The notes: a model not told the origin generated them from the letters alone. A stretch of 64,000 bases of DNA from Pseudomonadota bacterium (GCA_049324555.1 JBMOOR010000157.1:23563-87562); one strand, 5' to 3'; positions 15,563 through 29,919 are shown, numbered from the stretch's first letter. Numbers and translations: made by a program.

Positions 15563-16104
15563 GCCGCTTCGGCTATGTCATGGTGACGTATTTCGTGACG
15601 ATGGGCATGGCCATCGCCGCCTTCATCCCGACGCCCATCAGGCTGATCTGGAACGCCAGCGCGAGCGCGCCGATCGGCTTCTACACCATCGAGCCGGCGG
15701 AGCGCCTTCAGGCGCCGGACCTGGTCGCCGTCACGCCGCCCGAGGCGCTCGCCAGCTTCATCACGGAGCGCGGTTATGTCGGGCGCGGTGTGCCGATGTT
15801 GAAGCGCGTGCTCGGCCTGCCGGGACAGCGCGTGTGCCGTTCCGGGCTCACTATCGCCGTCGATGGAATCGAAGTCGGCGACGCGCTGGAGCGCGATCGT
15901 CTCGGCCGCGAGCTGCCTGCCTGGCGCGGCTGCCGCGTGATCGCCGATGGCGAAATCTTCCTCATGAACTGGCAGGTCCGCGACAGCCTCGACGGCCGTT
16001 ACTTCGGACCCATCCCCGCAAGTTCCGTCATCGGCCGGGCGATCCCGCTGTGGACCGATGAGGAAGGCGACGGCCGCTACCGCTGGCGCGCGCCGACGCA
16101 CTGA
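15559..16104 (+). CDS. traF: TraF-like S26 peptidase (pilin maturation)
   Basis: WNASASAPIGFY, LKRVLGLPGQ, SLDGRYFGP. Confidence 0.9.
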   Translation: MSRFGYVMVTYFVTMGMAIAAFIPTPIRLIWNASASAPIGFYTIEPAERLQAPDLVAVTPPEALASFITERGYVGRGVPMLKRVLGLPGQRVCRSGLTIAVDGIEVGDALERDRLGRELPAWRGCRVIADGEIFLMNWQVRDSLDGRYFGPIPASSVIGRAIPLWTDEEGDGRYRWRAPTH

Positions 16105-16140
16105 AACGTGCCTTCACCCCTCAACCACAGGAGATGTTCC

Positions 16141-16476
16141 ATGGCGCAGATCGGACAATTCACCCGCGAGAAATCCCGCTTCGTCGGTCGCATTCACACG
16201 CTGACTCTCTATCGCGACCTCACCATCGTTCCGGCCGAGCCGTCCGATGCCGAGAACGCGCCGGATTATCGCGTCTATCACGGCGACGAGAACGGCCCGG
16301 AGATCGGCGCCGGCTGGAAACGCACCGGCGAAAAGGCCGGCGAGTATGTCTCGCTCCAGCTCGACGACCCCAGTTTCGTGCAGCCGATCCGGGCCAACCT
16401 GTTCCAGTCGGACGACGACAAGGCTGCATGGTCGCTGCACTGGAATCGACCGCCCAAGCGCAGCGAACGGGACTGA
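16141..16476 (+). CDS. DUF736 family protein, copy 2
   Basis: MAQIGQFT...GRIHTLTL...APDYRVY...EIGAGWKR...YVSLQLDDPSF. Confidence 0.9.
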   Translation: MAQIGQFTREKSRFVGRIHTLTLYRDLTIVPAEPSDAENAPDYRVYHGDENGPEIGAGWKRTGEKAGEYVSLQLDDPSFVQPIRANLFQSDDDKAAWSLHWNRPPKRSERD

Positions 16477-16678
16477 AGCGATGCGCTATGCCGTCAAGAT
16501 CGCGCATAAACCCGCCATCCCTTTGTTCGCGGGAAAGCCGTCTCATCCCTTCGTCCCGCTCGGCGACCAGACGGCCGGCGCGCGCAGCGAAGGTCAAGGG
16601 CGGCGTTTCGCCGGCGCCCCGCGCGCACCCTTGACCGCAGCGAGCACGCTGGCAGGCTGGCGTCGTGGCGGAGACCGG

Positions 16679-17404
16679 ATGGTCTCCCGATATGCCGTTC
16701 TCTTGTTCGCCAGCGCGCTCCCGGTCGCCACGCTTGGGGGCGTGGCGACGGCGCAGCCAATTGCGGCCGAACGCATAGCCACGAGCAATCCATACGCTGA
16801 CCACATCGCCGAAGCTTCGCAACGCTTCGGCGTTCCGATTGCATGGATTATAGCCGTCATGCGCGCCGAGAGCGCGGGCGATGTGCAAGCAGTCTCGCGC
16901 AAGGGCGCGATGGGTTTGATGCAGTTGATGCCCGATACTTGGGCCGAACTGCGCGTCCGTCACGGCCTCGGTCGCGATGTCTATGATTCTCGCGACAACA
17001 TCCTCGCAGGCACGGCCTATCTGCGCGAGATGTTTGACCGCTACGGGAACATCGCTGCCATGCTCGCAGCCTACAATGCCGGTCCTGGCCGCTACGACGA
17101 ATACCTCTCGACGGATCGTCCGTTGCCGGCCGAGACACGTAACTATGTCGCGGCCATTCTTCCTCTGATCGGCGTTGGCGATAACGTCGAGCGCATCATA
17201 GTCGCGACCGCCGATCCCAATGCGTGGAGGCGCGCGCCGCTCTTTGTGGCGCGCTCGACTGACATACAATCTGCCGACTCCATGCAGTCCGATCAGCGCT
17301 CGACCAACATGCCGGCGACGCATCCGGTGCGTGATGTGTCAGCGATCGAGCCGCGATCCGACGGATTGTTCGTTGTCAGTGCAAGCGCGGGCGAACCGCA
17401 ATGA
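16679..17404 (+). CDS. Lytic transglycosylase (SLT)
   Basis: AVMRAESAG, GAMGLMQLMP, LAAYNAGPG, ETRNYV; N-terminal signal-like stretch. Confidence 0.9.
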   Translation: MVSRYAVLLFASALPVATLGGVATAQPIAAERIATSNPYADHIAEASQRFGVPIAWIIAVMRAESAGDVQAVSRKGAMGLMQLMPDTWAELRVRHGLGRDVYDSRDNILAGTAYLREMFDRYGNIAAMLAAYNAGPGRYDEYLSTDRPLPAETRNYVAAILPLIGVGDNVERIIVATADPNAWRRAPLFVARSTDIQSADSMQSDQRSTNMPATHPVRDVSAIEPRSDGLFVVSASAGEPQ

Positions 17405-17510
17405 AGACGGCGACCGGGCGCGACACGGCCACCGTTTCAGTGTGCAGGCGGATAGCGTGGACTCACGGACAGAAGCAGGCGGGAGGAGCAAAAAGGGCGG
17501 AAAGGCGTGA

Positions 17511-17551
17511 GGGCAAGATAAAACAAAGCGGCACCCTGTCGGGCCGCTTTG
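17511..17551 (-). promoter_or_regulatory. Candidate oriT: IR plus RP4-like nic site
   Basis: Minus strand TATCTTG^CCC (17520-17511) versus RP4 TATCCTG^CCC, preceded on that strand by the 9-bp IR CAAAGCGGC/GCCGCTTTG (17524-17551); lies just upstream of the relaxase. Confidence 0.6.
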
Positions 17552-17717
17552 GCAAATTGTTGTTGTCTGCACACTGGTTAGGGTCGCCTCGCACGGCACT
17601 CCATTTGCTGGCAGTGCGTGCCGTCCATTGGCTCAACCCGTTGGCTTCGCTGACTTCTCAACGGCACCATAGCTCAGAACGGTGCGTTTTCGCCCCATTG
17701 CCGCCAGGACGGCGCCC

Positions 17718-19769
17718 ATGAGCGCCGACGACGAGGATCGGTTTCGGCCGAGGCCGGGCCGCATCCGATCCGACACACGCGGCGGCGCGCGGACCAAGAG
17801 CTTCTTCACCAGGGTAAGGAAGATCACCCGGCAGCAGTGCACCGCGCCAGCTCGCCATGGCCCGCGCCGGAGCGCGAGCGCTTCGGCCAAGGGCGCCGCC
17901 CGCGCGCGCGCCGCCAGTGGACCCGGCGTCAGACGCGGGCGCGGTGCGGCCTTCATTCGGTCGCGCCAGCTCGCGGGCGGTTGGCGCCACAGCCAGCCCG
18001 GTGTGCGTCGCGTCGTCGTCAAAACGCGCTTCGTCCACAAGGCCGGAAGGAACGGCAAGGCCGCCGCCCATCTGCGCTATATCCAGCGCGACGGCACGGC
18101 GCGCGACGGCGAACGCGGCCAGCTCTATTCTGAGACGGAGGATCGCGCCGACGGACGCAGCTTTCTGGAACGTGGCAAGGAGGATCGCCACCAGTTCCGC
18201 TTCATCATCTCGCCCGAAGACGGCGCCGACCTGTCGGACCTCAAAGCTCACACCCGCGACCTTATGAACCAGATGGAAGCGGACCTCGGCACGAAGCTCG
18301 ATTGGGTCGCGGTCAATCACTACAACACCGGTCATCCGCATGTTCATGTCATCGTCAACGGGCGTGACGAGCTGGGCGGGGATCTGGTCATCAACGGCGA
18401 CTATCTCGCCAACGGCATCCGCGAGCGGGCGAGCGAGTTGGCGACGCTCGAACTCGGCCCCGTCACCGAGATCGAGCAGCGCCGCAAGTTATCGGCTGAG
18501 ATCGACCAGGACCGCTTCACTCGCATCGACCGGGCGATGACGGAAGAAGCCGAGGACCGCTTCCTCGATCTGTGCCATCAGCCGGCCGAACCGAGACGCC
18601 AGTTCAACCGTGCGCTTCGCCTGCGCCGCCTCGCCAAGCTGGAGAAGATGGGGCTCGCTGCCGAGCATGCGCCCGGCGTCTGGGAGCTAAGCGAGCGGCT
18701 GGTGCCGACCTTGCGCGCGTTGGGCGAGCGCGGCGACATCGTCCGCTCCATGCACAAGGCGCTGAAGGCCGATGGCATGGAGCGCGATCCGATGACCTTT
18801 CGCATCCACGAGGCCGCGCCCGAAACATCCATCGTCGGCCGCGTCGTCGACAAATACCTGTCCGACGAACTGGGTGAGAACCTCACTCTTGTCGTCGATG
18901 GGATCGATGGGCAGACGCACCATGTCTCCAGCATTGAGCCGGCTCGCGTGGACGACGCACGAATCGGCAGCATCGTCGAGATCGGCCCGGCCGAAGCGAC
19001 GCGGCGTCCGTCCGACCAAGCCATCGCCTCCATCGCCGAGAGCGGGGTCTATCGGCCGAGCCGACATCTGGAGCAGGCCCGCTTCGAGGGGCGTGTTCCG
19101 GGCGGCGACTATCAGGGCTTTATCGACGCCCATGTCCGCCGGCTGGAGGCGTTGCGCCGCGCTGGTATTGCCGAGCGGATCGACGCTGACCAATGGCGCA
19201 TCCCCGAAGACTTCGAGCATCGCGCCACCGCCTACGACGCCGGTCGGCGCCGGCAGGCCAATATCCGCATCCTTTCGGCCTTCGATCTGGACAAGCAGAT
19301 CGGCGCCGACGGCGCGACCTGGCTCGATCGGCGGCTGATCGTCGGCGAGGCTTCCGATCTCGCCCCCGCCGGCTTCGGGCAGCAGGTTCGCGACGCAATG
19401 GACCGCCGGCGCGATCACCTAATCGACCGGGGCGACGCCACCCGCCAACAGAACGGCCGCGTCTTCTACCGGCGCAATCTCCTCGCTACGCTGCGCGAAC
19501 GCGATGTCGCTCGCGCCGGCGCCGAACTGGCGACGAGCAAGACCATGCCGTTCCGCGCCGCAAGAGACGGCGAAACCGTCGGCGGCAAGTTCACCGGCGC
19601 CGTCCAGCTATCGAGCGGCAAGTTCGCCATCGTCGAAAAGAGTTATGAGTTCACCCTTGTCCCCTGGCGGCCGGTCATCGACCGTCAACTCGGCCGCGAA
19701 GTCATGGGCGTCGTGCAAGGGGGGTCGGTATCGTGGCAGTTGGGACGGCAAAGGGGTCTCGGGCTGTGA
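17718..19769 (+). CDS. rlxS: VirD2/MOBP-type relaxase with DUF3363 C-terminus (RlxS-like)
   Basis: AHLRYIQRDG (catalytic Tyr), RHQFRFIISPEDG, HYNTGHPHVHVIV (HUH). Confidence 0.92.
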   Translation: MSADDEDRFRPRPGRIRSDTRGGARTKSFFTRVRKITRQQCTAPARHGPRRSASASAKGAARARAASGPGVRRGRGAAFIRSRQLAGGWRHSQPGVRRVVVKTRFVHKAGRNGKAAAHLRYIQRDGTARDGERGQLYSETEDRADGRSFLERGKEDRHQFRFIISPEDGADLSDLKAHTRDLMNQMEADLGTKLDWVAVNHYNTGHPHVHVIVNGRDELGGDLVINGDYLANGIRERASELATLELGPVTEIEQRRKLSAEIDQDRFTRIDRAMTEEAEDRFLDLCHQPAEPRRQFNRALRLRRLAKLEKMGLAAEHAPGVWELSERLVPTLRALGERGDIVRSMHKALKADGMERDPMTFRIHEAAPETSIVGRVVDKYLSDELGENLTLVVDGIDGQTHHVSSIEPARVDDARIGSIVEIGPAEATRRPSDQAIASIAESGVYRPSRHLEQARFEGRVPGGDYQGFIDAHVRRLEALRRAGIAERIDADQWRIPEDFEHRATAYDAGRRRQANIRILSAFDLDKQIGADGATWLDRRLIVGEASDLAPAGFGQQVRDAMDRRRDHLIDRGDATRQQNGRVFYRRNLLATLRERDVARAGAELATSKTMPFRAARDGETVGGKFTGAVQLSSGKFAIVEKSYEFTLVPWRPVIDRQLGREVMGVVQGGSVSWQLGRQRGLGL

Positions 19770-20047
19770 AGGCAAGTCCCAAGCTCAACCGTCGCATCGA
19801 CGACACGGCAAGATGGAATCACGTCTCTGCAATGAACTCCGGCCCGTAGGAAACCGGAAGGCTTATCGAGCGCACGATGAAGCAGACCTTGTGAATGTGG
19901 TTATAGTGTCTCTGCAAGCTTGCAATATCGCGGACCTGCTCGACCGCGATGTCACGAGCATCGTACAGCGCGGGACCGCCCAGCCTGCCGTATGATTCAA
20001 CGCTGCTTGAGCGCCTCAGCCACCTCTGACGGACAATCATGTCCTTG

Positions 20048-20482
20048 TCAGACCTTGCGCGACAATATGGCGAGCAGATCAGCCAATTGATCGGCGCGAG
20101 CACCGGCCAGTTTCGCGCCAACATGCCCTTGGATTGCGGCGCCATAGACTGTCCATATTCGCGACTGCATCGCGCGGCCCGCTTCGGTGACGACCACCCA
20201 ACGGCCACGTCCATCATCCGCGAAAGCTTCGCGCCGGACCAAACCGTCCTTTTCCATGCGATCGAGGAGCCGGGAAAGGTTGTGCTGCGCGAGCAGCGTC
20301 CGCTCCTCAATCTCATAGGGGCGGAGTTTCCCGTCCTCAGCGCGCACCAGTTCCAGCAGCACATCATACCAGCCGAGTGGTGGAAGACCTGCCGCCTTCA
20401 GGTCCTGCTCGATTGCGGCCAGGACTAGGCGCTGCGCCCGCATGAGGCGCACCCAAGCGCGGATGACGGACGGAGAGGGCAT
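20048..20482 (-). CDS. MarR family regulator
   Basis: WYDVLLEL...HNLSRLLDRMEKDGLVRRE...DGRG. Confidence 0.9.
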   Translation of the reverse strand: MPSPSVIRAWVRLMRAQRLVLAAIEQDLKAAGLPPLGWYDVLLELVRAEDGKLRPYEIEERTLLAQHNLSRLLDRMEKDGLVRREAFADDGRGRWVVVTEAGRAMQSRIWTVYGAAIQGHVGAKLAGARADQLADLLAILSRKV

Positions 20483-20515
20483 CGTGTCGGCGCTCGAGGA
20501 GCAGCTGGGCATAAA

Positions 20516-20576
20516 TGCAATTACATCTATATTGACGGGCAACGCAAGCTGATATAGATGTAGTTGCATCTACATC
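20516..20576. promoter_or_regulatory. Two probable MarR operators between marR and doxX
   Basis: GATGTAGTTGCATCTACATC (20557-20576), an 18/20 palindrome; TGCAATTACATCTAT (20516-20530) is an inverted copy of 20554-20568 (14/15). Confidence 0.7.
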
Positions 20577-20594
20577 GCGAACCGGAGTTCGTCC

Positions 20595-21005
20595 GTGACC
20601 CAAGACCGCCTGACCGACTACGCCGTGGCGCTGCTGCGCATTAGCCTCGGCGTCATGTATCTCGCCCATTCCATCGCGCTCAAACTACTGACCTTCGGGC
20701 TTGTCGGCACGGCGAGCTATTTTGAATCCATAGGCCTGCCGGGATGGCTGGCCTATGTGACCTTCGCTGCGGAAACCATCGGCGGAGCAATGCTGGTTCT
20801 TGGCGTTTATGCCCGTTGGGTGGCCGTGGGGCTGATCCCGGCGTTGCTCGGTGCGATTATCTGGGCGCATGGCGGTAATGGCTGGGTATTCAACGCGCCG
20901 GGCGGCGGCTGGGAATATCCGCTCTACCTGATCGTGCTCTCCGCCGCGCAGTTCCTGCTTGGCGATGGCTCTTACGCGCTGCGTCCCTCCAAGCCGCTTC
21001 TCTGA
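20595..21005 (+). CDS. DoxX family membrane protein
   Basis: LLRISLGVMYLAH, GNGWVF...GGGWEYP. Confidence 0.9.
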   Translation: MTQDRLTDYAVALLRISLGVMYLAHSIALKLLTFGLVGTASYFESIGLPGWLAYVTFAAETIGGAMLVLGVYARWVAVGLIPALLGAIIWAHGGNGWVFNAPGGGWEYPLYLIVLSAAQFLLGDGSYALRPSKPLL

Positions 21006-21027
21006 TCCCATGACAGGAGATCCCGTC

Positions 21028-21711
21028 ATGTCCAACGCCAAGCTGACGCTGGTCAGCCATCACCTCTGCCCCTATGTCCAGCGCGCGGCCATTGCGCTTA
21101 CCGAGAAGAGTGTGCCCTTCGAGCGCCGCTATGTTGATCTCTCGGCCAAACCAGACTGGTTCCTCGCCATCTCCCCGCTCGGCAAGGTACCACTGCTGAT
21201 CGTCGCTCACAGCGAGGGCACGGAGACCGTTCTGTTCGAGAGCGCCGCGATCTGCGAATATCTTGAAGAAACGCAGGCTGGCGTTCCCCTACATCCTGCA
21301 GATCCTCTGACGCGCGCCCGGCGTCGGGCTTGGATGGAGTTCGGTTCGTCCATCCTGTCCGATCTATGGGGCTTCGAGACGGCAACGGATGCCGAAACAT
21401 ATGAAAGCAAGCTCAGGGCGCTGATCGACAAGTTCGGCCGCGTGGAGGCGGAACTGGGCGAAGGCCCGTTCTTCGCCGGCGAGCGGTTCAGCCTCGTCGA
21501 TGCGGCCTTCGCCCCGATCTTCCGCTATTTCGATGTTTTCGATGCCATCGCGGAAACAGGAGTCTTCGCCGATACAAGCAAGGTTCTGGCGTGGCGAGCG
21601 GCGCTTCGCGAGCGTCCGAGCGTGGCTGGCGCAGTGGCCGCCGACTACGCCGTCCGGCTACGCTCATTTCTTATGGACCGGGACGCCTACCTTCTCAAAA
21701 TTGCGGCGTGA
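21028..21711 (+). CDS. Glutathione S-transferase
   Basis: SHHLCPYVQRAAI, SPLGKVP, LFESAAICEYLEE, FSLVDAAFAP. Confidence 0.9.
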   Translation: MSNAKLTLVSHHLCPYVQRAAIALTEKSVPFERRYVDLSAKPDWFLAISPLGKVPLLIVAHSEGTETVLFESAAICEYLEETQAGVPLHPADPLTRARRRAWMEFGSSILSDLWGFETATDAETYESKLRALIDKFGRVEAELGEGPFFAGERFSLVDAAFAPIFRYFDVFDAIAETGVFADTSKVLAWRAALRERPSVAGAVAADYAVRLRSFLMDRDAYLLKIAA

Positions 21712-21775
21712 AGAAGCCATGACTCGGAATGTGGCATGGCTTCTGTTGCTCGCGCCGGCATAGTGCGGCTGAGCG

Positions 21776-22741
21776 ATGCGACGGCGGCGTTCACCTCTTA
21801 TAGTTGATCATCGGTTGGGGATACCGACCTCGCTGGGATCGCGCATTCCTCTCGCCTCGCTCATTCAGACGCTGGCCGTCGCTGAATATCTGAACTTCCG
21901 CCACGCAGCGAACGCGCTCGGCGTCGCGCAATCCAGTGTCAGCGCGCGCATAAAAGCTTTGGAGGAAGACCTTGGCATCCTGCTTTTCGAGCGTCACGCG
22001 CGGGGCGTTCGGCTGACGGAAGCCGGCCAGCATTTCGTCGAGAGGGTGACGACAGGCATCGGACATCTCGACCATGCCGTAAGGACAGCCGGCATGGTGG
22101 CGCGCGGCGAGAAGGGCAGCTTGCGCATCGGCATCTATGCGCTGGTCCCCGGCAGCTTCCTCGCCAACCTTCTTAAACAATTCCGGGAACAACATCCGGG
22201 CGTCGAGTTCGAAATCGTCGAAGGTACAGCCCGCGATAGCATCACGCGGCTCCGGGCAGACCGGCTAGACATGACGTTCGTGGCAGGTTCGCCTGAGTTT
22301 CCCGACTGTCATTCTCGGCGGATATGGAGCGAGCGGCTGCTTGCCGCGTTGCCGTCCCGTCACCCGCTCGCCGATGGAGCAGGCGTCACCTGGGCCGATC
22401 TGGCGGGCGACACCTTCATCGTCCGCCACGGTGGCACTGGCCCCCAGGCGCATGACCACATTGTCCTGCGCCTCGCAGGCAGATTTGCGAGGCTGTCAAT
22501 CCTGCGCTTCGATGTCGAGCGCGGCACACTGCTGTCGATGGTTGCGCAAGGCTATGGCGTCACCATCGCCGGCGAGGCGACATCGCCGATGCTCGCGCCT
22601 GGCGTGACCTTCCTACCGATTCTCGACGAGCCGGGACCACTCGCGTTCTCCGCAATCTGGTCCCCGCACAACCGTAACCCCGCGCTCGGAAGCCTTCTCG
22701 ATCTAGCAGCCAAGATGAGTCGGTCAGGCTGGACAACCTGA
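21776..22741 (+). CDS. LysR family regulator, copy 1 (TraR-like of Tn4371)
   Basis: AVAEYLNFRHAANALGVAQSSVSARIKALEEDLGILLFER...LTEAG. Confidence 0.9.
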   Translation: MRRRRSPLIVDHRLGIPTSLGSRIPLASLIQTLAVAEYLNFRHAANALGVAQSSVSARIKALEEDLGILLFERHARGVRLTEAGQHFVERVTTGIGHLDHAVRTAGMVARGEKGSLRIGIYALVPGSFLANLLKQFREQHPGVEFEIVEGTARDSITRLRADRLDMTFVAGSPEFPDCHSRRIWSERLLAALPSRHPLADGAGVTWADLAGDTFIVRHGGTGPQAHDHIVLRLAGRFARLSILRFDVERGTLLSMVAQGYGVTIAGEATSPMLAPGVTFLPILDEPGPLAFSAIWSPHNRNPALGSLLDLAAKMSRSGWTT

Positions 22742-22806
22742 CAATCCCCGCAACGCGTCGGCCTCGCGACCACCGCAACCATCCTTGCCGCCGATTGCAA
22801 CCGAGC

Positions 22807-22968
22807 GTCAGTGGCAGGCTCACCGGGACCGTGCCGCGAACGAGCGGCAAGTTCGCGATTTTGGACAAAAGCCACGAGTTCACCCTTGCCCCCTGGCGGC
22901 CGGTCAGCGACCGTCAGTTCAGACACGAGGTTATCGTGCAAGAGGGATCGGTATCGGCAGCTCGGAAA
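22807..22968 (+). pseudogene. Degenerate duplicate of the relaxase 3' tail
   Basis: Translates VSGRLTGTVPRTSGKFAILDKSHEFTLAPWRPVSDRQFRHEVIVQEGSVS versus relaxase VGGKFTGAVQLSSGKFAIVEKSYEFTLVPWRPVIDRQLGREVMGVVQGGSVS (from 19578); has deletions and a frameshift. Confidence 0.9.
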
Positions 22969-23100
22969 GCGCCGAACGACCGGAATTTGGTCCATGGTCG
23001 TTATGCTTGTCGTAGGCGGCGGCGCTCATCGTGAGGACCGAACGCCGGTTGCTTTCCCGCGTCAGAGCGAAATCTGTCCGTGCGGCCTTGGGCCCAGCTC

Positions 23101-23559
23101 TTATGGCGCCCGCATGACGCCGTCGCCGAAGGGATGGTCGATCACCATTTGCCAGGCGCCGTCCGGTTGGCGGCGCAGCACGGCCACCGAAAGGGCGCTC
23201 GTCTCCGTACCGTCCGGGCCTGGCGCGGTCCACTTCATCAAGTGCAGGGCGGTGTCGCCGGCAATGACAACCTCGTGCTCGCCGTAATTGAAGGAGACGC
23301 CGGATTCGACGAAGGCGGCGAACATCGCCCGCAGCGCCGCGTCGCCCCTCGTTGGCTGGCCCGGCTCGCCAACAACGACTGCTCCCGGCGCGTAGGTGGA
23401 CATGATCCGGTCGATGTCGCCAGCGGCGAAGGCCGACGTCATGCTTTCTATTGTGGCGAACACTTTGGTCTCGTCGGGCATCGCGGTCTCCTGTGCTTGG
23501 ACGGCGCCGGCAGTGGCGAGCAATGCGGCAGCGAGCGCCGCTGATTTCACAATCCGCAT
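23101..23559 (-). CDS. Exported SnoaL/NTF2-like (YybH/DUF4440) protein
   Basis: Signal peptide MRIVKSAALAAALLATAGAVQA; AFAAGDIDRIM...VLRRQPDGAWQMVIDHP. Confidence 0.8.
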   Translation of the reverse strand: MRIVKSAALAAALLATAGAVQAQETAMPDETKVFATIESMTSAFAAGDIDRIMSTYAPGAVVVGEPGQPTRGDAALRAMFAAFVESGVSFNYGEHEVVIAGDTALHLMKWTAPGPDGTETSALSVAVLRRQPDGAWQMVIDHPFGDGVMRAP

Positions 23560-23629
23560 GTTTGTTCCTTCTGCGTTGGATGGGCCCATGCTAAATCCCG
23601 TCAGTGTCAGAAAACGGCAGTGGCGTTCC

Positions 23630-24325
23630 ATGCGACTATTTCGTCTCTTCCAGCTTCTCGACGAGTTGCGTCTGCGCCGCACTCCAGTGACGGCGTGTGA
23701 ATTGGCGCGGGAGATGGGCGTGTCACTGCGCACACTTTATCGGGACATCGCCGATCTGCAGGCCATGGGCGCCCCCATCCGCGGCGAGGGCGGCGTCGGC
23801 TATGTCATGGAGCCTGGCTATTTCATGCCGTCATTGCGGTTCGACGAAGACGAGTTGTCGGCGGTTGCTCTTGGCTTGCGACTCGTCGCCGTGCGCACCG
23901 ACGCGCGCATGTCCGAGGCCGCCCGACGGGCGGCGGCCAAGATCGCGTCCGCCGTAAGCGACGAGACGCGCCGGGCCTTCTTGGACAGTTCGTTTGAGGC
24001 GGGGCCGAGCGATGCGGCAAAAGCGCCCCACCTGGAGACGTTGCGCGCGGCCATCCGGCGGCGAATGGTGCTGGAGATCGGCTACATGAGTCTGGCGGAG
24101 AAGCCGTCCACCCGCCGCGCCCGCCCGCTCGGCCTCACTGTATTCGACACGGTCTGGCTTCTGACGATCTGGTGCGAAGCGGCGCGCGACTTTCGACATC
24201 TGCGAGTAGACCGCATCAGCGACGTGTACGAGACCGGCAAGCATTTCCGGGATGAACGGGGAAAGCGCTTCGCCGACTGCCTTGCCCGCGAAGGAAACGA
24301 TTCCTTGATGGGAAATCAGAGGTAA
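23630..24325 (+). CDS. YafY-like HTH-WYL regulator
   Basis: LAREMGVSLRTLYRDIADL..G.GY; RARPLGL...WLLTIWCEAARDFRHLRVDRI. Confidence 0.9.
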   Translation: MRLFRLFQLLDELRLRRTPVTACELAREMGVSLRTLYRDIADLQAMGAPIRGEGGVGYVMEPGYFMPSLRFDEDELSAVALGLRLVAVRTDARMSEAARRAAAKIASAVSDETRRAFLDSSFEAGPSDAAKAPHLETLRAAIRRRMVLEIGYMSLAEKPSTRRARPLGLTVFDTVWLLTIWCEAARDFRHLRVDRISDVYETGKHFRDERGKRFADCLAREGNDSLMGNQR

Positions 24326-24497
24326 ATGGCGGGCCGCGCGGGATGGTGATGGGCGGTATTGCTACACCTTGCACCATGAAGGTTGTGAGGTTGTGAGCCT
24401 ATAATGGAAACCAGTTCAGAGCCCGGCCCACGCCCCTCCACCCAAGGGTCGCTTTCGCCGCAGGCCGTGAACATATTCTACCCAGTCTGGTCCGCAA

Positions 24498-25166
24498 CTA
24501 GTCGACACTCATGGCCAGGATTTGGCTGATCTGGGTGAGCGGTCGGTCGCTTTCGGACCGCCACTGATTGAAGGCGTCCTGAACGGCGATCATGGCGCGC
24601 TTTGACATCGCCGAGCGGTCGATGATTCCCTCCCGGGTGAGCCGCTTACAGACATCCGGCGCGAGGATATAGCCGTCGCGCCCAACCATGCGGCAAACGC
24701 GCTGGCCGGTGACGCCGCCAAGCCGCGCGCCCTTTTCGCTAATGAGCGCGAGAAGCCCGCAATGATCTTCGACGGGCCATTTCGCGAGGTGGCGCGAGGC
24801 CCCGCCGCTTTCATCATCGAGCCGCGAAAGGAACCGGGCATTGTCGATGACGGCGGCGATCTTGGCGCCGTTTCGCACGATTGCCCTGTCAGCGAGTAAA
24901 CGGTCGATATCCGCATCTTCGTAACGGGCGACGCGCCGAATGTCGAAGCTCGCAAACGCCGCATTGAACGCCGGCCACTTCGCGTCGATAACGGACCAGT
25001 TGAAACCTGCCTGAAACAGCGCCTTTGCCATCGCTTCGAGCCAGGCCGACGCGGGGACACGCGCGAGCTTCGCAGTCGGCAGCGGCGTATCGAGCAGGCG
25101 TTCTAGGGCCTTTGGGCCGCCTTTGCGTTCCGCCGCAATGGCTTCGATCTCCCGAAACTCACGCAT
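24498..25166 (-). CDS. DNA-3-methyladenine glycosylase I (Tag) family
   Basis: FQAGFNWSVIDAKWPAF..AF..FD...IVRNGAKIAAVIDNA. Confidence 0.8.
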   Translation of the reverse strand: MREFREIEAIAAERKGGPKALERLLDTPLPTAKLARVPASAWLEAMAKALFQAGFNWSVIDAKWPAFNAAFASFDIRRVARYEDADIDRLLADRAIVRNGAKIAAVIDNARFLSRLDDESGGASRHLAKWPVEDHCGLLALISEKGARLGGVTGQRVCRMVGRDGYILAPDVCKRLTREGIIDRSAMSKRAMIAVQDAFNQWRSESDRPLTQISQILAMSVD

Positions 25167-25761
25167 CTACGACTTCCCGATAGAGTCCGAGTCCCTTCAG
25201 CGTCGTAAGCGTGAGGAGCCAGAGTTCGTCTTCGCTTCTGATAACCTTGCTGAGGACATTGAGCCCAATCATCAGGTTTTGCAGCGCAAGGGCGAGGGCG
25301 TGGATGTTCGCGTCGTTCGGGATCTCGCCTGCGTCGCGCGCCATCTCCAGAAGACGCTCCAGATTCTTCGCCGAGCCAAGTACGAGATCGGCGAGTTCTG
25401 CGCCCAGGCCCTCCGTGTCGGGACAAAGTTCACACACAGCGTTGACAATGAGGCAGCCCCTCGCCTCCGGATCACCAGAGCGGGCGCGGCAGATGTCTCG
25501 GAACACCTTGCTGATCAGAGGCAGCGTCCGCGCGACATCGGGCGCATAGAGCGGCGCGTCAGGGCTCTGCGCCGCATACACCGGGATCGCCTCGCGCAGC
25601 AGCGCCTCACGCGAACCGAACGTGTTGTAGAAGCTCGATCGGGTGATGCCGAGGAGTTCGGACAGGGCCTTCACCGAGGAGGGCTCGAATCCATGCTTCC
25701 AGATCGCGTTCGTAGCCGCGATCAGCGCTTCCTTTCGATCAAACTCTATCGGCCTCGCCAC
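25159..25761 (-). CDS. TetR/AcrR family regulator
   Basis: (V)ARPIEFDRKEAL...LGITRSSFYNTFGSREAL, GCLIVN; GTG start inferred. TGGAC-N5-GTCCA IR at 25797-25811 upstream. Confidence 0.85.
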   Translation of the reverse strand: MARPIEFDRKEALIAATNAIWKHGFEPSSVKALSELLGITRSSFYNTFGSREALLREAIPVYAAQSPDAPLYAPDVARTLPLISKVFRDICRARSGDPEARGCLIVNAVCELCPDTEGLGAELADLVLGSAKNLERLLEMARDAGEIPNDANIHALALALQNLMIGLNVLSKVIRSEDELWLLTLTTLKGLGLYREVVDA

Positions 25762-25867
25762 CGCAGCCTCATCACTAGAAAAATTTTGTTCATCTATGGA
25801 CAAAACGTCCAAAGTTCATTATAGACATATGTGAACAAAACAGCGTCGTCAACCGAAAGAGCCATGG

Positions 25868-26560
25868 ATGCCAAGCCTCAACGAGAAAATACGAAATACG
25901 ATCAAAGGGTTTCGGGAGATGTTGCCACCAGAGATGACCGCGCAACTGGAGCAGGGCGCCGGGGAAATCAGTGCGCTCGATATCGTCGAGAGGGCGCTGC
26001 GTCCGGGCGATCTGGCACCCGCGTTCGATCTCGCCGCTTATGGCGGTGGCCGGCGAACCCTGCCCAGCTATCTCAATAGCGGCCCGCTGGTTCTCACCTT
26101 TTATCGCGGTGTCTGGTGCCCCTACTGCAATCTTCAACTCAAGGAGTATCACGACCGCCTGCTCGAGATCACCAACCTGGGCGCAAGCCTCGTCGCCGTC
26201 ACGCCAGAGAAGCCGGGTGCGTTCGATCGGCTAACGACCTCGGGCGCGCCGGCGGACATAGTTGCGGGCGCCGCTACGTCTGTCGGATTCGACGTGCTGC
26301 ACGACGCGGGCAACGCGCTCGCCCGCCAATACGGCTTGGTGTTCGAGTTGCCTGAAAGTCACCGGCGCGTTCTCGCGCAAATCGGCATCGACCTCGTCGC
26401 AATGACCGGTGATGCGTCTGTCACGTTCCCCGATCCGGCGACATACGTGATCACGCCGGGCGGCCGGATCGCCTGGGCCTTCGTCCCGAACAACTACCGC
26501 AAACGCGCCGAGGTCAGCGCCATCGCTGCGGCGTTGCGCGAACTCAAGTCCAAACAGTAG
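25868..26560 (+). CDS. AhpC/TSA peroxiredoxin-like protein
   Basis: FYRGVWCPYCNLQL (CxxC). Confidence 0.85.
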   Translation: MPSLNEKIRNTIKGFREMLPPEMTAQLEQGAGEISALDIVERALRPGDLAPAFDLAAYGGGRRTLPSYLNSGPLVLTFYRGVWCPYCNLQLKEYHDRLLEITNLGASLVAVTPEKPGAFDRLTTSGAPADIVAGAATSVGFDVLHDAGNALARQYGLVFELPESHRRVLAQIGIDLVAMTGDASVTFPDPATYVITPGGRIAWAFVPNNYRKRAEVSAIAAALRELKSKQ

Positions 26561-26578
26561 CAAGAGGGATAGAAGCAA

Positions 26579-26869
26579 GTGAGCGCCTTCATCATAGCGA
26601 CCGTTACGTTCAAAGATCCTGAGAAGTTCGCTGAGTATGGAAAAAGGGCTGGCGCCTCGATGGCGCCGTTCGGCGGCGAAGTGCTCCAGCGCGGCAAGCT
26701 GAACGCAGTTCTTGCCGGCAAGGCCGATCATGTTGTCGCGGCGGTCATCCGGTTTCCCGATCAGCAGTCGCTGGCGGCGTGGCACGCCTCGCCGGAGTAC
26801 CAAGCCATCATTCCGCTCAGAGATGAGGCAGCCGACATCACCTTGATCTCCTACGATGGGCTGACCTGA
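26579..26869 (+). CDS. DUF1330 protein
   Basis: FGGEVLQRG...VIRFPD...AWHASPEYQAIIPLR. Confidence 0.85.
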   Translation: MSAFIIATVTFKDPEKFAEYGKRAGASMAPFGGEVLQRGKLNAVLAGKADHVVAAVIRFPDQQSLAAWHASPEYQAIIPLRDEAADITLISYDGLT

Positions 26870-26965
26870 TCCGCCATCATCTCTGAGTTCAGCGCGTCAC
26901 GCCGCAAGACAGCCCCATCGGCGCGTCGCTCATCTCCATTCAACCAAGCTTCAGGAACCTACACC

Positions 26966-27943
26966 GTGAAACGGCTCATATCACTCGCCGCGTTGTTGAT
27001 AGCGGCTTCAGCCACCGTCCTGGGCGGCAGCGCAAACGCACACGAAGCGAAACTCCCAGCGCCTGTAATCTCCGAGGAGCTAACCATCGCTCGAAGATCG
27101 GTCGATGTTCTCGGCAGCACGATGTCTTATCTTGAGGACGGTCGGGGAAAGCCGGTTCTCTTCATTCACGGCAATCCAACCTCGGCTTATCTCTGGCGCA
27201 ACGTCATCCCTTACATCTCAGACACGAACCGCGCCATTGCGGTCGACCTGATCGGTATGGGTCATTCAGGCAAGCCAGACATCGAGTATAGTTACGCCGA
27301 CCAGTACGCTTATCTCGAGGCGTTTATCGAAGCGCTCGACCTGCGCGACATCACGCTCGTCGTGCACGACTGGGGCGCGACGCTCGGTTGGGACTACGCG
27401 CGCCAGAATCCAGATCGCGTGATCCGGATCGCCTTCATGGAAGGCGTTCTCCCACCTGCTTTTCCGATCACGGACATTTCCGCGATGGGTGAAACGGGCC
27501 AGGCGCTCGCGGCTATGCGCACGCCTGGGCAAGGCGAGCAAATGGTCCTCGAAGGAAACATGTTCGTCGAGCAGATGCTGCCAGGCTTCGTCAACCGGCC
27601 GCTCGGGGCGCAAGCTATGACGGAATATCGCGCGCCGTTCCTGAACTCAAGAAACCGCCGGCCAACATTGCAGTGGCCGCGCGAACTTCCCATCGAAGGC
27701 CAGCCCGCCGATACGACCGCAACTATGGAGGAAATCGGCCATTTCATGCAGAGCACGACGATGCCGACCCTCTTTCTCTACGCCGACCCCGGCGTCGTTG
27801 GCCCGCCCCAACTTGCTGAGTGGTATACGGCGCATCTGCGCCGCGCAGAGACCGCCTACGTTGGTCAGGGATTTCACTTTATCCAGGAAGATCAGCCAGA
27901 CGCTATTGGCCGCGCGATCAGTGATTGGCTCAGGCGGAACTGA
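26966..27943 (+). CDS. dhaA: Haloalkane dehalogenase (DhaA/LinB-type) with N-terminal signal peptide
   Basis: HGNPTS, DLIGMGHS, HDWG nucleophile, FMEG acid, GFHFIQED base; leader MKRLISLAALLIAASATVLGGSANA. Confidence 0.85.
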   Translation: MKRLISLAALLIAASATVLGGSANAHEAKLPAPVISEELTIARRSVDVLGSTMSYLEDGRGKPVLFIHGNPTSAYLWRNVIPYISDTNRAIAVDLIGMGHSGKPDIEYSYADQYAYLEAFIEALDLRDITLVVHDWGATLGWDYARQNPDRVIRIAFMEGVLPPAFPITDISAMGETGQALAAMRTPGQGEQMVLEGNMFVEQMLPGFVNRPLGAQAMTEYRAPFLNSRNRRPTLQWPRELPIEGQPADTTATMEEIGHFMQSTTMPTLFLYADPGVVGPPQLAEWYTAHLRRAETAYVGQGFHFIQEDQPDAIGRAISDWLRRN

Positions 27944-28125
27944 GGAGGCCATCGCCGGTCCGGCATCATGGCGGTGTTTCCCCCTGCAGCGTCCTTAAGG
28001 CGCGCTGGACAGTATAGTTGCCTCTTCTGTCCACGCGTCGATCGACGAACGCATGGCGGATTGGTTCGTCGCGCCAATTCGCCACCAGGTCGGGTGACAG
28101 CGGGCACAGCGACGAGATGAGACCA

Positions 28126-29088
28126 ATGCGGCGCCGAAGCCTCAAGAAAGATCGTCTGGGTCAATCCGTTCCCCCGCTGTCGGATGGACGGATTCCGATG
28201 GCATCCCTCATACAGGCTCTCGCTGTTGCCGAGTATCTGAATTTTCGTCACGCGGCGAATGCGCTCGGTGTCAGCCAGTCAAGCGTCAGCATGCGTATCA
28301 AAATGCTGGAGGAAGACCTTGGCGTGCTGCTATTCGAGCGCCGGTCTCGCGGCGTGCGGCTAACTGAGGCGGGCCGCCATTTCGTCGAGCAGGTCTCCAT
28401 TGGCATCGACCAACTCGACCACGCGGTGAAGACAGCGGGGATGCTCGCGCGCGGCGAACAGGGAGTCCTGCGGATCGGCCTGCATGCTTTCGTCTCTTCG
28501 GGCTTTGTCGCCGATCTGTTGAGCCGCTTTCGGGAGGCACATCCCGGCGTCGATGTCGAGATCGCTGAAGGAAGCCCACGCGAGATGTTGATGCAGGTGC
28601 GCGAGGCCCGGCTGGACGTGGCCTTCGTGGCGGATTCTTACTCCGTCGCCGACTGCCATTCGCGCCCCCTTTGGACTGAGGGGCTTATGGCTGCCATCCC
28701 GGCAAACCATCCGCTTGCTAGCAGCCAAGACGTGACTTGGCGTGGTCTCGCAGCGGATACCTTTTTGGTTCGCTACGGAAGCGACGGCGCCCTGCTTCAC
28801 GATCGCATCCGCTTACGACTGACGGAACGGGGGCCTTCTCCTACAATCCTGCGCGTCAACGTGGATCGGCTGACACTGATGTCGATGGTCGGACAAGGCT
28901 ATGGAGTGACGATCGCCAGCGAGGCGACCGCGAAAATATCCGTTCCCGGCGTCGTATTCCTGCCTATCCTCGACGAGCCGGAGCCAATCGTCTTCTCCGC
29001 CGTCTGGTCTCCCGGCAATCACAGCCCAGCGCTCCGCGCTTTCCTCGATCTGGCCCAAAAAGCCGCCCGCTCACCTTCGGCGGCCTGA
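28126..29088 (+). CDS. LysR family regulator, copy 2
   Basis: Paralog of 21776 (IPMASLIQALAVAEYLNFRHAANALGV); start chosen by analogy. Confidence 0.88.
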   Translation: MRRRSLKKDRLGQSVPPLSDGRIPMASLIQALAVAEYLNFRHAANALGVSQSSVSMRIKMLEEDLGVLLFERRSRGVRLTEAGRHFVEQVSIGIDQLDHAVKTAGMLARGEQGVLRIGLHAFVSSGFVADLLSRFREAHPGVDVEIAEGSPREMLMQVREARLDVAFVADSYSVADCHSRPLWTEGLMAAIPANHPLASSQDVTWRGLAADTFLVRYGSDGALLHDRIRLRLTERGPSPTILRVNVDRLTLMSMVGQGYGVTIASEATAKISVPGVVFLPILDEPEPIVFSAVWSPGNHSPALRAFLDLAQKAARSPSAA

Positions 29089-29292
29089 CCGCGCCACCAA
29101 TTCCGCGGGCTCGACTCCCAGCGCATCTGCGATCTGCCCCAATACTGTAACGCTCGCCGACACATCACCGCGCTCGACTGCGCCAAGATAACGGGCGCTT
29201 AGGCCGGCGCGTTCTGCCAGCTCCTCCTGCGTCAGCTTTTGATCGTGGCGTTTCCGACGCAGATTCTTCGCCAAGACCTCCTTGAGATCCAT
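29071..29292 (-). CDS. qseC: QseC-like XRE/C-protein HTH regulator
   Basis: MDLKEVLAKNLRRKR...LTQEELAERAGLSARYLGAVERG; divergent from the qseM-like gene. Confidence 0.8.
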   Translation of the reverse strand: MDLKEVLAKNLRRKRHDQKLTQEELAERAGLSARYLGAVERGDVSASVTVLGQIADALGVEPAELVARSGRRR

Positions 29293-29313
29293 GGCGGAAT
29301 GGGAGCCCATGCA

Positions 29314-29342
29314 GGAAGGATCGTTCCAGGAACGATCCTTCC
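29314..29342. promoter_or_regulatory. Paired operator for QseC-like protein
   Basis: Perfect 14-bp IR GGAAGGATCGTTCC-A-GGAACGATCCTTCC; each half is itself a near-palindrome of GGAACGATCGTTCC. Confidence 0.75.
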
Positions 29343-29490
29343 GATTCGTGCAAGTCCATGATATTCATGACCGTCTACCTCGCCTTTTGAACCTTTCGTG
29401 GGGCGAAATACTGTCGGAATCTGCGCAGTCGATCACGAGTGAAGGTCTCGCGAGTCGCTGATAGCGTCGGCCCGACAAGGAGGGCGTTGC

Positions 29491-29793
29491 ATGAGTGTCA
29501 GGACTGAGCTTGATCCCGACGTCGACGACGATGCTCCGAACGATCCAGACATCACCCTGTATGACGAGGCGCATTTCGTAACCTATCTGCGCCTGCTCGA
29601 TGCCGAAGCCGAAGGCGCTCGTTGGACGGAGGTGGCGCGGATCGTCCTGCATCGCGATCCGATTGCCGACGAGGCACGAACTCGCCGATGCTGGGAGAGT
29701 CATTTGGCGCGCGCTCAATGGATGACGAAGCAAGGCTATCGCCGGATTCTTGAACAGGCCGTCGAGGACGCGCGTAACACTCGTCACAATTGA
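29491..29793 (+). CDS. qseM: QseM-like stand-alone DUF2285 antiactivator
   Basis: ITLYDEAHFVTYLRLLDAEAEGARWTEVARIVL..DP...HLARAQWMT..GYR; RBS AAGGAGG. Confidence 0.85.
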   Translation: MSVRTELDPDVDDDAPNDPDITLYDEAHFVTYLRLLDAEAEGARWTEVARIVLHRDPIADEARTRRCWESHLARAQWMTKQGYRRILEQAVEDARNTRHN

Positions 29794-29919
29794 CTCAAAC
29801 AGCCCGTCCGATTTCTTCGCCATGGTATCCGGCAGTACCCGGGCCGCGCTTTTCTGTTGAGTCTCGCTGCAACCGCTATTCTCTGATCGGCTCCGTCTCT
29901 TTTGCCGATTGGAGCCATC

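Follow-up and report, generated by a model that had tools for sequence, protein, structure and literature searches.

The cargo hotspot between the relaxase gene and traG of an integrated conjugative element (ICE), found in the 64,000-nucleotide stretch analysed here (the window), holds two complete accessory regions in tandem. The two regions come from different ICE lineages, and we consider it probable that a single homology-anchored illegitimate recombination joined them, which as a whole best explains the arrangement. The structure is a recombination fossil and a variant of already known ICE mosaicism. The gene order given by a sequence-only reading, namely relaxase, MarR/DoxX/GST, LysR1, relaxase remnant, seven cargo genes and LysR2, agrees with the Pfam and NCBIfam assignments (Table 1), by one or other of which every gene call was confirmed, those of the seven-gene second cargo (cargo 2, 23101-27943) included.

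Table 1. Features of the element, by position in the window
Feature	Position	Strand	Support or remark
TraF (S26 peptidase)	15559-16104		PF10502; precedes DUF3363/RlxS-type relaxase
RlxS-type relaxase, intact, 695 aa	17682-19769	+	PF11843 (DUF3363) 3e-148, PF03432
Relaxase part repeated in remnant	19577-19740	+	Repeat family D3 and pairwise alignment
Candidate second relaxase-tail remnant, 40 nt	19935-19974	+	nhmmer, tail profile 279-318
MarR-family repressor	20048-20569	-	PF12802 8e-15; divergent from DoxX-GST-LysR1
DoxX	20595-21005	+	PF07681 1.5e-16; reads towards LysR1
Glutathione S-transferase (GST)	20959-21711	+	GST_N and GST_C families; reads towards LysR1
LysR1, intact	21776-22741	+	PF00126 and PF03466
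LysR-traG spacer and first 20-25 nt of donor's traG-upstream element	22742-22795	+	
Junction microhomology GCCGCCGAT, 9 nt	22786-22795	+	Common to traG-upstream element and relaxase codons ~619-621
Decayed relaxase 3' remnant, ~65 codons	22787-22973	+	nhmmer, codon-position test
SnoaL/DUF4440	23101-23733	-	Pfam
HTH-WYL	within 23396-24325	+	Pfam
Methyladenine glycosylase (Adenine_glyco), partial	24498-25166	-	Pfam
TetR	25159-25812	-	Pfam
AhpC/Prx	25868-26560		Pfam
DUF1330	26579-26869		Pfam
Alpha/beta hydrolase	26966-27943		Pfam
LysR2	28123-29088	+	PF00126 and PF03466
HTH_3 gene	29071-29310	-	Pfam
Small RovC_DNA-bd gene (RovC-like)	29491-29793	+	Pfam
Conserved traG-upstream element	29793-29901	+	nhmmer profile of 55 traG-upstream regions, E = 2e-98
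IncP-type TraG coupling protein	29902-31914	+	PF02534 1e-100; NF010450 1235 bits
Large serine recombinase	44125-45807		Resolvase, Recombinase and Zn_ribbon_recom domains

The conjugative element and its cargo hotspot

The ICE is Tn4371-related and of the alphaproteobacterial type. The left part of its backbone leads from a ParB-like gene to HTH_17, a methylase, DUF2840, TraF, SLT and the RlxS-type relaxase, and to the right of the accessory region follow a TraR-like LysR, TraG, TrbB-TrbI, a toxin-antitoxin pair and a serine recombinase at tRNA-Arg; the mating-pair genes TrbB (PF00437), TrbE and TrbI thus accompany an IncP/Ti-like TraG. Tn4371-family ICEs and their alpha-type relatives have the same succession of TraF, DUF3363 relaxase, variable region, LysR (TraR), TraG and Trb (PMC11448139, PMC2789088). 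Unlike the Tn4371 family proper of the beta/gamma type, which is defined by a tyrosine integrase with short att repeats, the window ICE has a large serine recombinase adjoining tRNA-Arg (45778-45854), and we therefore place it among the related alpha-type elements, outside the family in the strict sense. The relaxase, which closes the traI block, aligns over its full length with the NCBIfam model relax_RlxS (NF041267) at 661.7 bits, below the curated cut-off of 850 bits, and is by this comparison a relative of RlxS and not an equivalog.

The interval from the relaxase stop codon to traG is the main cargo hotspot of this ICE family. In 17 of 80 relatives traG begins 103-172 nt past the relaxase stop, some hotspots being empty (~161 nt), and filled hotspots nearly always close with a TraR-like LysR ~60 nt before the conserved traG-upstream element. 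Such a LysR lies directly before traG in 36 of the 39 cargo-bearing alphaproteobacterial loci in which traG was reached, in contrast to the published statement that alpha I/II types have no traR at this place (PMC11448139). LysR2 likewise occupies the TraR position of Tn4371-type ICEs, upstream of traG and on the same strand. Both LysR genes of the window are TraR-like regulators and not ordinary cargo. TraR of Tn4371-type ICEs is transcribed together with cargo genes and acts as an activator of xis and of transfer (PMC11448139), and in accessory region 3 of the Tn4371 family (traI/rlxS to traR-traG; Ohtsubo/Matsumoto) the LysR-adjacent cargo genes also read towards LysR.

The relative L100 is 88% identical at the nucleotide level to both arms of the ICE (window 13431-19756 and 28107-39134) and, unlike the window, has one cargo block only between them, with other contents. 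L109, of the same lineage, has another cargo set and an inner truncated LysR, and the variable region is wholly different among these three close relatives. Both L100 and L109 have the order LysR-HTH-RovC-traG, and L098 has LysR-RovC-traG; the HTH_3 and RovC-like genes are the lineage-specific right end of the hotspot.

Two regulators from two lineages

The two LysR genes, described as paralogous in the sequence-only reading, share 62% amino acid identity, and their homology ends at the borders of the coding regions. LysR1 is 84% identical in amino acids to the traG-adjacent LysR of L073 and groups in the LysR tree with the traG-adjacent LysRs of L073, L070 and L108, which belong to other ICEs (support 100/99). 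LysR2 shares 90% and 83% of its amino acids with the LysRs of L100 and L109, both located just upstream of RovC-traG, and clusters with these members of the ICE's own lineage (support 100/100). The tree thus places LysR1 as a TraR-like regulator from a foreign ICE lineage and LysR2 as native, with the series cargo 2-LysR2-HTH-RovC belonging to its own backbone. Downstream of LysR1, window 22681-22794 matches the LysR 3' end, the spacer and the start of the traG-upstream element of L073 at 100 of 117 positions, and by these alignments the first cargo (cargo 1, MarR / DoxX-GST-LysR1) comes from a different, L073-like ICE lineage. The foreign origin suggested by the sequence-only reading is thus borne out by the LysR1 clade and the L073-like spacer. 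A profile search for duplicated traG-upstream elements inside the cargo found none beyond the piece of 20-25 nt.

Next to marR, the intergenic region of cargo 1 contains a 21-nt palindrome at 20512-20572 and a promoter-like site at 20506-20533. Some 170 nt past the relaxase stop, a 40-nt segment matches the relaxase-tail profile at 31 of 40 positions (E = 0.0015 in the 10-kb cargo region) and might be a further tail remnant, a weak lead. Searched against plasmids with megablast, 19770-29900 returned nothing, and a DNA search of 400 same-order genomes returned distant pieces only, at 66-72% identity. Neither these genomes nor the plasmid collection held a close relative of cargo 2 or a parent ICE with cargo 1 alone or cargo 2 alone.

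The relaxase scar

A tail profile built from 81 functional tails (363 positions) matches the remnant over positions 154-346 with E = 4e-38 in the 10-kb cargo region. The decayed tail copy that had been noticed at 22807-22968 is therefore real, but longer than the ~55 codons assigned to it. It is ~78% identical in nucleotides and 63% in amino acids to the corresponding part of the intact relaxase, and it carries two deletions, one of 6 nt that keeps the reading frame and one of 2 nt that shifts it. Relative to the consensus, its changes are distributed over codon positions 1:2:3 as 6:7:12, against 231:109:841 in functional tails; the remnant has decayed since joining. The scar shares no exact match longer than 17 nt with the resident tail and can therefore no longer support recombination; it is an inert recombination fossil, not an active mechanism. 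At the junction, the LysR-side homology stops at 22794 and the relaxase homology, measured against L039, starts at 22786. A tblastn search had presented the tail as a stand-alone gene with a common left end near residue 600, and this candidate was rejected, as on inspection the extensions proved false and the true boundaries are not the same.

Surveying ICEs for repeated DUF3363 tails, as had been suggested, revealed a recurring pattern rather than a rare one-off, with about eight comparable scars in relatives. Independent LysR/tail junctions occur in L012, in L101 (as a LysR::DUF3363 fusion ORF, P0036) and in the L111 / L063 family, and further tail remnants in L040 (two), after floR in the L063 family and in G512. 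Every remnant has the orientation of the relaxase gene and follows an intact copy of it, all eight are shorter than ~305 nt, and the four independent LysR/tail junctions fall about -40 to +54 nt from the LysR stop. The left ends of the remnants, by profile position in the independent cases, are 61, 99, 136, 154, 189, 246, 264 and ~283. A PF11843 census of 401 genomes of the class also found C-terminal-only fragments, and as it missed the window's own remnant it is an undercount.

Origin of the stack

We propose that two related ICEs met in one cell and that a single homology-anchored illegitimate recombination joined their accessory regions. One end would have paired in the conserved backbone, in the relaxase gene or in traG, and the other, whose homology in the backbone did not suffice for a legitimate crossover, would have been joined at a microhomology. 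In the window, the piece of the donor's traG-upstream element is attached to relaxase codon ~620 at GCCGCCGAT, which is present in both parental sequences, and the ~65 codons after it have decayed since. A legitimate double crossover would replace the resident cargo, whereas the illegitimate event would add to it. Such a one-anchor model explains both the shortness of the remnants and the clustering of donor ends just past the LysR stop, although the clustering, seen at four junctions only, could also reflect selection for keeping LysR and losing a duplicated traG promoter.

Whether the resident tail was itself imported and displaced an older one, as the sequence-only reading proposed, was addressed by comparison with relatives. 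The resident relaxase is 82-91% identical in nucleotides to those of L100 and L109, uniformly along its whole length, and in this comparison no homologous crossover inside it was demonstrable. An apparent mosaic, seen as a sharp drop against L008 past nt ~1500, was discarded when a four-way comparison put the foreign patch in L008, and informative sites on the native tail (against L008, L100 and a variant from metagenome run X3) gave mixed signals. The X3 contig has at most one difference from the window over 19133-19636 and 14 over 19637-19756, followed by 177 nt and then a traG start of 78% identity. This one assembler contig points to an ICE with an empty hotspot whose left arm is that of the window as far as a breakpoint in the relaxase tail, and suggests that the tail can be a crossover site.

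A tandem accretion of two related ICEs at the same att site, followed by a deletion from just past LysR1 of the first to relaxase codon ~620 of the second, predicts the same junction, in which a traG-upstream element is joined at a microhomology to the other ICE's relaxase tail. Tandem arrays and hybrids are, moreover, established in other ICE families such as SXT/R391. We nevertheless find this course of events unlikely, for the ends of such deletions should be spread over tens of kilobases, unlike the narrow range of the four junctions and the short remnants. In addition, both arms are equally close to L100, so that the first ICE would have to combine a left arm of this lineage with a foreign LysR and spacer.

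An integron-like mobility, in which circles of tail, cargo and LysR excise and insert by recombination in the relaxase 3' end, appears improbable. A circle closed at GCCGCCGAT and a single tail crossover would yield exactly the window structure, the X3 contig hints at tail crossovers, and the block of relaxase tail, cargo and LysR is transferable in the ISCR2-borne floR module (PMC6885840). However, the mobility of the floR unit is accounted for by ISCR2 and IS26 and not by the unit itself, four metagenome runs contained no joint that skips from one tail to the other or from one LysR to the other, and the two tails are too diverged to share more than 17 identical nucleotides in a row. The remnant left ends and the LysR-side ends differ in each case and the window junction is a 9-nt microhomology with no recombination site; as the scar positions are all different, a site-specific mechanism of accumulation is ruled out, and with it the integron-like analogy. 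Integrase-free, as the sequence-only reading had described the stack, it is: no recombinase domain was found by Pfam in 19770-29900, and hence none in either module.

Still less probable is a local tandem duplication of tail, cargo and LysR within one ICE, with later divergence and cargo replacement in one copy. The direct-repeat architecture, the two rare states common to remnant and resident tail, and the sister LysRs of L012 speak for it, and at least one stack, that of L012, may have come from near-identical elements or a local duplication. In the window ICE, the LysR phylogeny largely refutes it: LysR1 and LysR2 belong to separate clades, each with strong support, the LysR1 spacer is L073-like, and a LysR identity of 62% contrasts with a backbone only 12% different from L100. 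The remnant also comes 21st among 81 when ordered by identity to the resident tail, rather than first, and lacks most of that tail's private changes, so that a simple local duplication of the tail is disfavoured on this comparison.

An assembly chimera of two ICE variants, conceivable in a 310-contig draft genome and with related ICEs that co-occur in the same metagenomes, can practically be dismissed, since the repeats have at most 17 identical bases in common, the same architecture is present in isolate genomes (L012, L063) and a plasmid (L111), all sampled words of the junction stretch were found in 20 metagenome runs from 12 studies, and single contigs from two different studies span both modules (10.5 kb in run X11, 19607-30113; 11 kb in run X19, 19128-30103) with 8-9 differences from the window.

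Relation to known systems

The proposed joining of two accessory regions resembles homology-facilitated illegitimate recombination, a process known from naturally transformed Acinetobacter and Streptococcus, in its junction at a short GC-rich microhomology and, with an anchor crossover that in the window is presumed, in one homologous anchor beside which foreign DNA is added. That process was shown for transforming DNA and not between ICEs. In SXT/R391, hybrids arise by homologous recombination in the shared backbone and hotspot contents are replaced. In those hybrid and tandem ICEs, as in our model, relatives that meet in one cell recombine and their variable regions are reshuffled, whereas the illegitimate junction of the window stacked two hotspot contents and left scars of the backbone edge. 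Like integrons, the stack has serial cargo beside a fixed point, to which the newest unit is presumably closest, but it has no integrase, attI or attC, its junctions vary, and its units comprise several genes including regulators.

The likeness to the ISCR2-virD2-floR-lysR-ISCR2 module (PMC6885840) is closer, with a DUF3363 3' fragment upstream and a TraR-clade LysR downstream. On the E. coli plasmid pEC31-3, 'virD2' is a 3' fragment of a DUF3363 relaxase (aa 450-693, 69-96% identical to the window relaxase) and 'lysR' a TraR-like gene cut down to aa 1-105, with 67% identity to LysR1 and LysR2, which identifies the floR module as a unit of relaxase tail, cargo and LysR. The second module of the window, from the remnant to LysR2, has both borders as in this canonical unit, and the floR-tetR-tet(G)-lysR cluster, ordered tail-floR-tail-tetR-tet(G)-LysR/tail-...-traG in pKPC_CAV1176, has tail and LysR borders as in the window stack. 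The floR modules have genes for drug resistance as their cargo and left the ICE through ISCR2 or IS26. The window stack, by contrast, has genes for stress response and detoxification and is still part of a complete ICE, without a transposase in this interval. The Tn4371-family literature cited here (PMC11448139, PMC2789088) does not describe a region that combines two TraR-like genes with a relaxase remnant.

Implications for cargo gain

According to a 2024 study of this ICE family, the route by which new cargo is gained 'remains totally unknown' (PMC11448139). The scars provide a concrete, testable answer for one such route, namely recombination between related ICEs at the edges of the accessory region, in which an incoming block with insufficient homology at one end is added to the resident one and does not replace it. 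They also explain the presence of two TraR-like regulators in one ICE, each downstream of a different stress-responsive operon, as well as the 'virD2' fragment and the 'lysR' that flank floR in a module present in 952 of 5426 complete E. coli genomes. The ICE now likely carries two units of a local repressor, a stress operon and a TraR-like regulator. Here we speculate, while leaning against it, that backbone-anchored illegitimate recombination at the hotspot is a general additive cargo route of Tn4371-type ICEs and also gave rise to the progenitor of the virD2-floR-lysR resistance module now found worldwide. If so, each event would add a complete 'sensor-operon-TraR' unit, several signals unrelated to one another would come to induce transfer, and the scars of relaxase tail and TraR would constitute an ordered record of successive acquisitions.

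The accessory region of the element

The window carries a conjugative element which, according to the gene order obtained with Pfam and NCBIfam from a source genome of 310 contigs, follows the layout of Tn4371-related ICEs. Every gene that the sequence-only reading had named in the cargo was recovered, and these accessory genes occupy the counterpart of accessory region 3, the literature name for the interval from traI/rlxS to traR-traG (PMC11448139). The same genome holds further DUF3363 relaxases on contigs C271, C307 and C167, namely one intact copy with 43% identity, another on C307 that is broken up over three frames, and a C-terminal part lying at the end of a contig.

Features of the conjugative element and its accessory region (window coordinates)
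Feature	Coordinates	Remarks
Left part		in order: ParB-like, DUF736, IS5-family transposase, RovC-domain gene, HTH_17, DNA methylase, DUF2840, TraF (S26 peptidase), SLT transglycosylase
IS5/DDE_Tnp_1 transposase	9708-11111 (-)	insertion in the ICE leading region, between DUF736 and an unassigned 488-aa gene
Relaxase	17682-19769	695 aa; DUF3363 at 3e-148; RlxS model 662 bits, under the 850-bit cut-off
Accessory genes		~10 kb between relaxase and TraG
Tail-like match	19935-19974	40 nt, ~170 nt past the relaxase stop
Inverted repeat	20512-20572	between divergent MarR and DoxX
LysR1	21776-22741	last gene of module 1
Relaxase-tail remnant	22787-22973	past LysR1
Methyladenine glycosylase	24498-25166 (-)	matches profile positions 29-112 of 177 only; may be truncated or divergent
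LysR2	28123-29088	last gene of module 2
IncP-type TraG	29902-31914	followed by CopG, TrbB, TrbE ... TrbI
GNAT toxin gene		3' of TrbI in element order
Large serine recombinase	44125-45807	abuts tRNA-Arg
tRNA-Arg	45778-45854

LysR genes as the right-hand edge

LysR1 and LysR2 share 62% protein identity, and their similarity ends where the coding regions end. We compared the region with 80 relatives of the relaxase (of 317 DUF3363 loci found), which are 73-84% identical at the amino acid level and come mostly from Alphaproteobacteria. The space between relaxase and traG is empty in 17 of them, with traG beginning 103-172 nt past the relaxase stop. In 39 cargo-bearing loci traG was reached, and in 36 of these the series of genes ends in a homologue of LysR1 and LysR2 (50-84% aa). 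In these 36 loci, ~60 nt of spacer separate the terminal LysR from a conserved traG-upstream element, which is ~100 nt long and starts with CAACCCGTCCTATTTGCCGCCGATAGTATCCGGCAGC. The LysR genes match TraR in position and orientation and thus represent the right-hand edge of the accessory region rather than arbitrary cargo. While traR has been reported to be absent from the position before traG in the alpha types (PMC11448139), its presence there is the rule among the relatives sampled here. In seven loci (L024, L060, L068, L071, L076, L080 and L081), the traG-upstream element (~110 nt) recurs once more behind traG, 2.6-4.4 kb downstream of the first copy, where it probably stands before the next transfer operon, which suggests a common operator or promoter.

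A relaxase-tail remnant behind LysR1

The 3' end of the relaxase is repeated past LysR1, with 22806-22934 matching 19577-19705 at 78% nucleotide identity and 63% at the protein level. A nucleotide profile of 81 functional relaxase tails was run against the 10-kb cargo region, where the remnant aligned with profile positions 154-346 of 363 (E = 4e-38). The decayed copy of the relaxase end proposed from the sequence alone is thus real, its size of ~65 codons being slightly above the ~55 first estimated. It is a pseudogene fragment, carrying a 6-nt in-frame deletion and a frame-shifting 2-nt deletion, and its differences from the family consensus are distributed 6:7:12 over codon positions 1:2:3, compared with 231:109:841 in functional tails. 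Its longest exact match to the tail of the intact (resident) relaxase is 17 bases, and with so few identical bases in common the stack is frozen. A second match to the profile spans 40 nt (31/40 identical over positions 279-318; E = 0.0015 in 10 kb) and may be a scar of even greater age that has nearly been erased.

The junction itself could be placed by comparison with related ICEs. The 54 nt past the LysR1 stop track the LysR-traG spacer of the related locus L073 and take in the first bases of the traG-upstream element (...GCAACC-ATCC---TTGCCGCCGA), and 100 of 117 positions match L073 over 22681-22794. Homology to the relaxase begins at 22786 (GCCGCCGATTGCAACCGAGCGTCAG, compared with GCTGCCGATGGCGA--GAACGTCAG in the related locus L039), and the parental sequences therefore overlap in a 9-nt microhomology, GCCGCCGAT. 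Module 1 (MarR and DoxX-GST-LysR1) formerly stood right before the traG of another ICE, and was joined illegitimately to relaxase codon ~620. An assembly artefact was ruled out: the complete junction stretch is present in 20 metagenome runs, which belong to 12 studies on biofilm, biofilter, drinking water, sludge and similar samples, and both modules lie on single metagenome contigs of 10.5 kb and 11 kb, with 8-9 differences, in runs of two different studies.

Module 1 as the foreign part

The metagenome locus L100 is 88% identical to the window at the nucleotide level on both arms (13431-19756 and, in two pieces, 28107-39134) and has a single, different cargo block between relaxase and LysR, consisting of OYE, TetR, a small ORF, Adenine_glyco and DoxX, followed past LysR by HTH, RovC and traG as in the window. 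The methyladenine glycosylase of L100 is a 140-aa version. The locus L109 belongs to the same lineage as the window (relaxase 87% aa, TraG 93% aa) and carries another cargo set together with an inner, truncated LysR2-like gene (aa 1-154). In a maximum-likelihood tree, LysR2 falls into one clade with its counterparts in L100 and L109 (support 100/100). LysR1 falls into another (support 100/99), together with the LysRs next to traG in L073 and L070 and with the inner copy of L108, and a starred branch separates the two clades. Tree and locus comparison together indicate that the backbone and module 2 (SnoaL to LysR2) belong together, and that MarR-DoxX-GST-LysR1 and its spacer were added from another lineage. 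A local duplication as the source of both modules is disfavoured by these separate origins of LysR1 and LysR2. Nor does the remnant, as such a duplication would have it, lie specially near the resident tail, to which it is 79.7% identical (rank 21 of 81; the best match, at 82.5%, is the tail of the related locus L008), and most private substitutions of the resident tail are missing from it.

It had further been proposed that the incoming module rebuilt the 3' end of the relaxase and displaced the old tail, which is unproven. No crossover inside the window relaxase was demonstrated by a four-way comparison, in which it is 82-91% identical to L100 and L109 over its full length, tail included, and site-by-site comparisons gave no polarity as to whether the resident tail or the remnant is native. 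Identity to L008 does fall after nt ~1500, but the four-way comparison located the odd patch in L008, where ~350 nt (window 19239-19595) are 72-78% identical to the window, L100 and L109, with flanks at 85-94%; the 3' third of the L008 relaxase thus contains a short recombination patch. On a contig of the metagenome run X3, 19133-19636 is matched with no more than one difference, and 14 differences fall within 19637-19756 (12% over the last 120 nt of the relaxase). Past the relaxase come 177 nt and then the beginning of a traG with only 78% identity (window 29880-30103). This one assembler contig looks like an ICE with an empty accessory space and the left arm of the window up to a breakpoint in the relaxase tail; if this reading is true, the relaxase tail is a natural crossover point.

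Recurrence in related elements

Repeated DUF3363 tails, whose recurrence the sequence-only reading had proposed to survey, were found in several further elements. The tail lies right behind the inner LysR in L012, and two remnants are present in L040. The L063 family represents one event after floR in seven loci (Brevundimonas, Rhizobium, Aquamicrobium, Paracoccus, Sphingomonas, Shinella and a Burkholderiaceae MAG). In L101, the LysR ORF reads into the remnant and is called as a 404-aa LysR::DUF3363 protein (P0036); in genome G512, the relaxase is only 42% identical. Genome G363 (L099, G363:C1:150000-155000) has a degraded copy of the L063-type (floR-type) element, of which only the C-terminal 111 codons of the relaxase, the second tail remnant and the first 70 LysR codons are left, and plasmid pKPC_CAV1176 has three tails, one beginning at the LysR stop. 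All extra tails lie on the relaxase strand, 3' of an intact relaxase except in G363 and pKPC_CAV1176, where the upstream relaxase is truncated. Remnant left ends fall at profile positions 61, 99, 136, 154, 189, 246, 264 and about 283, no remnant exceeds ~305 nt, and four independent LysR/tail junctions lie about -40 to +54 nt from the LysR stop. In the L062 family, L108 and L109 there are two LysRs but no visible tail, and the inner LysRs have at least three or four origins in the LysR tree.

Origin of the stack

Taken together, the core of the initial proposal holds: recombination brought modules of different ICEs together in a stack, and no integrase was involved. As its origin we favour a single event of illegitimate recombination, anchored by homology, between two related ICEs present in the same cell. 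Where both ends have enough backbone homology (the relaxase on the left, the traG-upstream element and traG on the right), a double crossover would swap the resident cargo without trace; where one end has only a few backbone bases, it would be joined by microhomology near the anchor and the resident cargo would be retained. Such a model accounts for the short remnants, for donor ends that lie at the border of the traG-upstream element or slightly within it, and for the constant polarity. Ranked second is a tandem array of two ICEs in which a deletion took place; this yields the same junction, but it would be expected to leave scattered end points and long backbone remnants, none of which were seen. 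Possible but unlikely is a circle of tail, cargo and LysR that closed at the microhomology and entered through one crossover in the tail, for which there is no specific support. The suggested analogy to integrons is wrong: a site-specific system of that kind is excluded by the variable boundaries, the microhomology junction and the lack of a recombinase gene in the region. What the window shows is a fossil scar, and the event is a variant of known ICE mosaicism whose signature was previously unremarked.

Implications for resistance and transfer

The MFS gene past the relaxase in the L063 family is FloR (NF000219, 828 bits). On E. coli plasmid pEC31-3 (NZ_CP060989.1 10820-14903), the canonical floR module lies between IS26 and ISCR2 and consists of a DUF3363 fragment with a frameshift (aa 450-693; identity to the window relaxase 69-96%), floR and a LysR truncated to aa 1-105 (67% identical to LysR1 and LysR2). 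The module, published as ISCR2-virD2-floR-lysR-ISCR2 (PMC6885840), has the unit relaxase tail - cargo - LysR as in the window, and 952 of the 5426 complete E. coli genomes carry it; it is an accessory region from an ICE of this type, removed together with the backbone edges on its two sides. A larger ICE piece is found in pKPC_CAV1176, in the order tail-floR-tail-tetR-tet(G)-LysR|tail-fabF-HTH-traG.

Each module in the window can be read as a divergent local repressor and an operon reading into a TraR-like gene, with MarR and DoxX-GST-LysR1 in module 1 and TetR and AhpC-DUF1330-hydrolase-LysR2 in module 2; no terminator-like site was found between operon and TraR-like gene in either. The 21-nt inverted repeat between MarR and DoxX (90% complementary, 19-nt spacer) overlaps a promoter-like site and is likely a MarR operator. 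By analogy with the regulation described for related elements (PMC11448139), transfer of the ICE may thus be coupled to two distinct stress signals, provided that the operators of this lineage are still recognised by LysR1.
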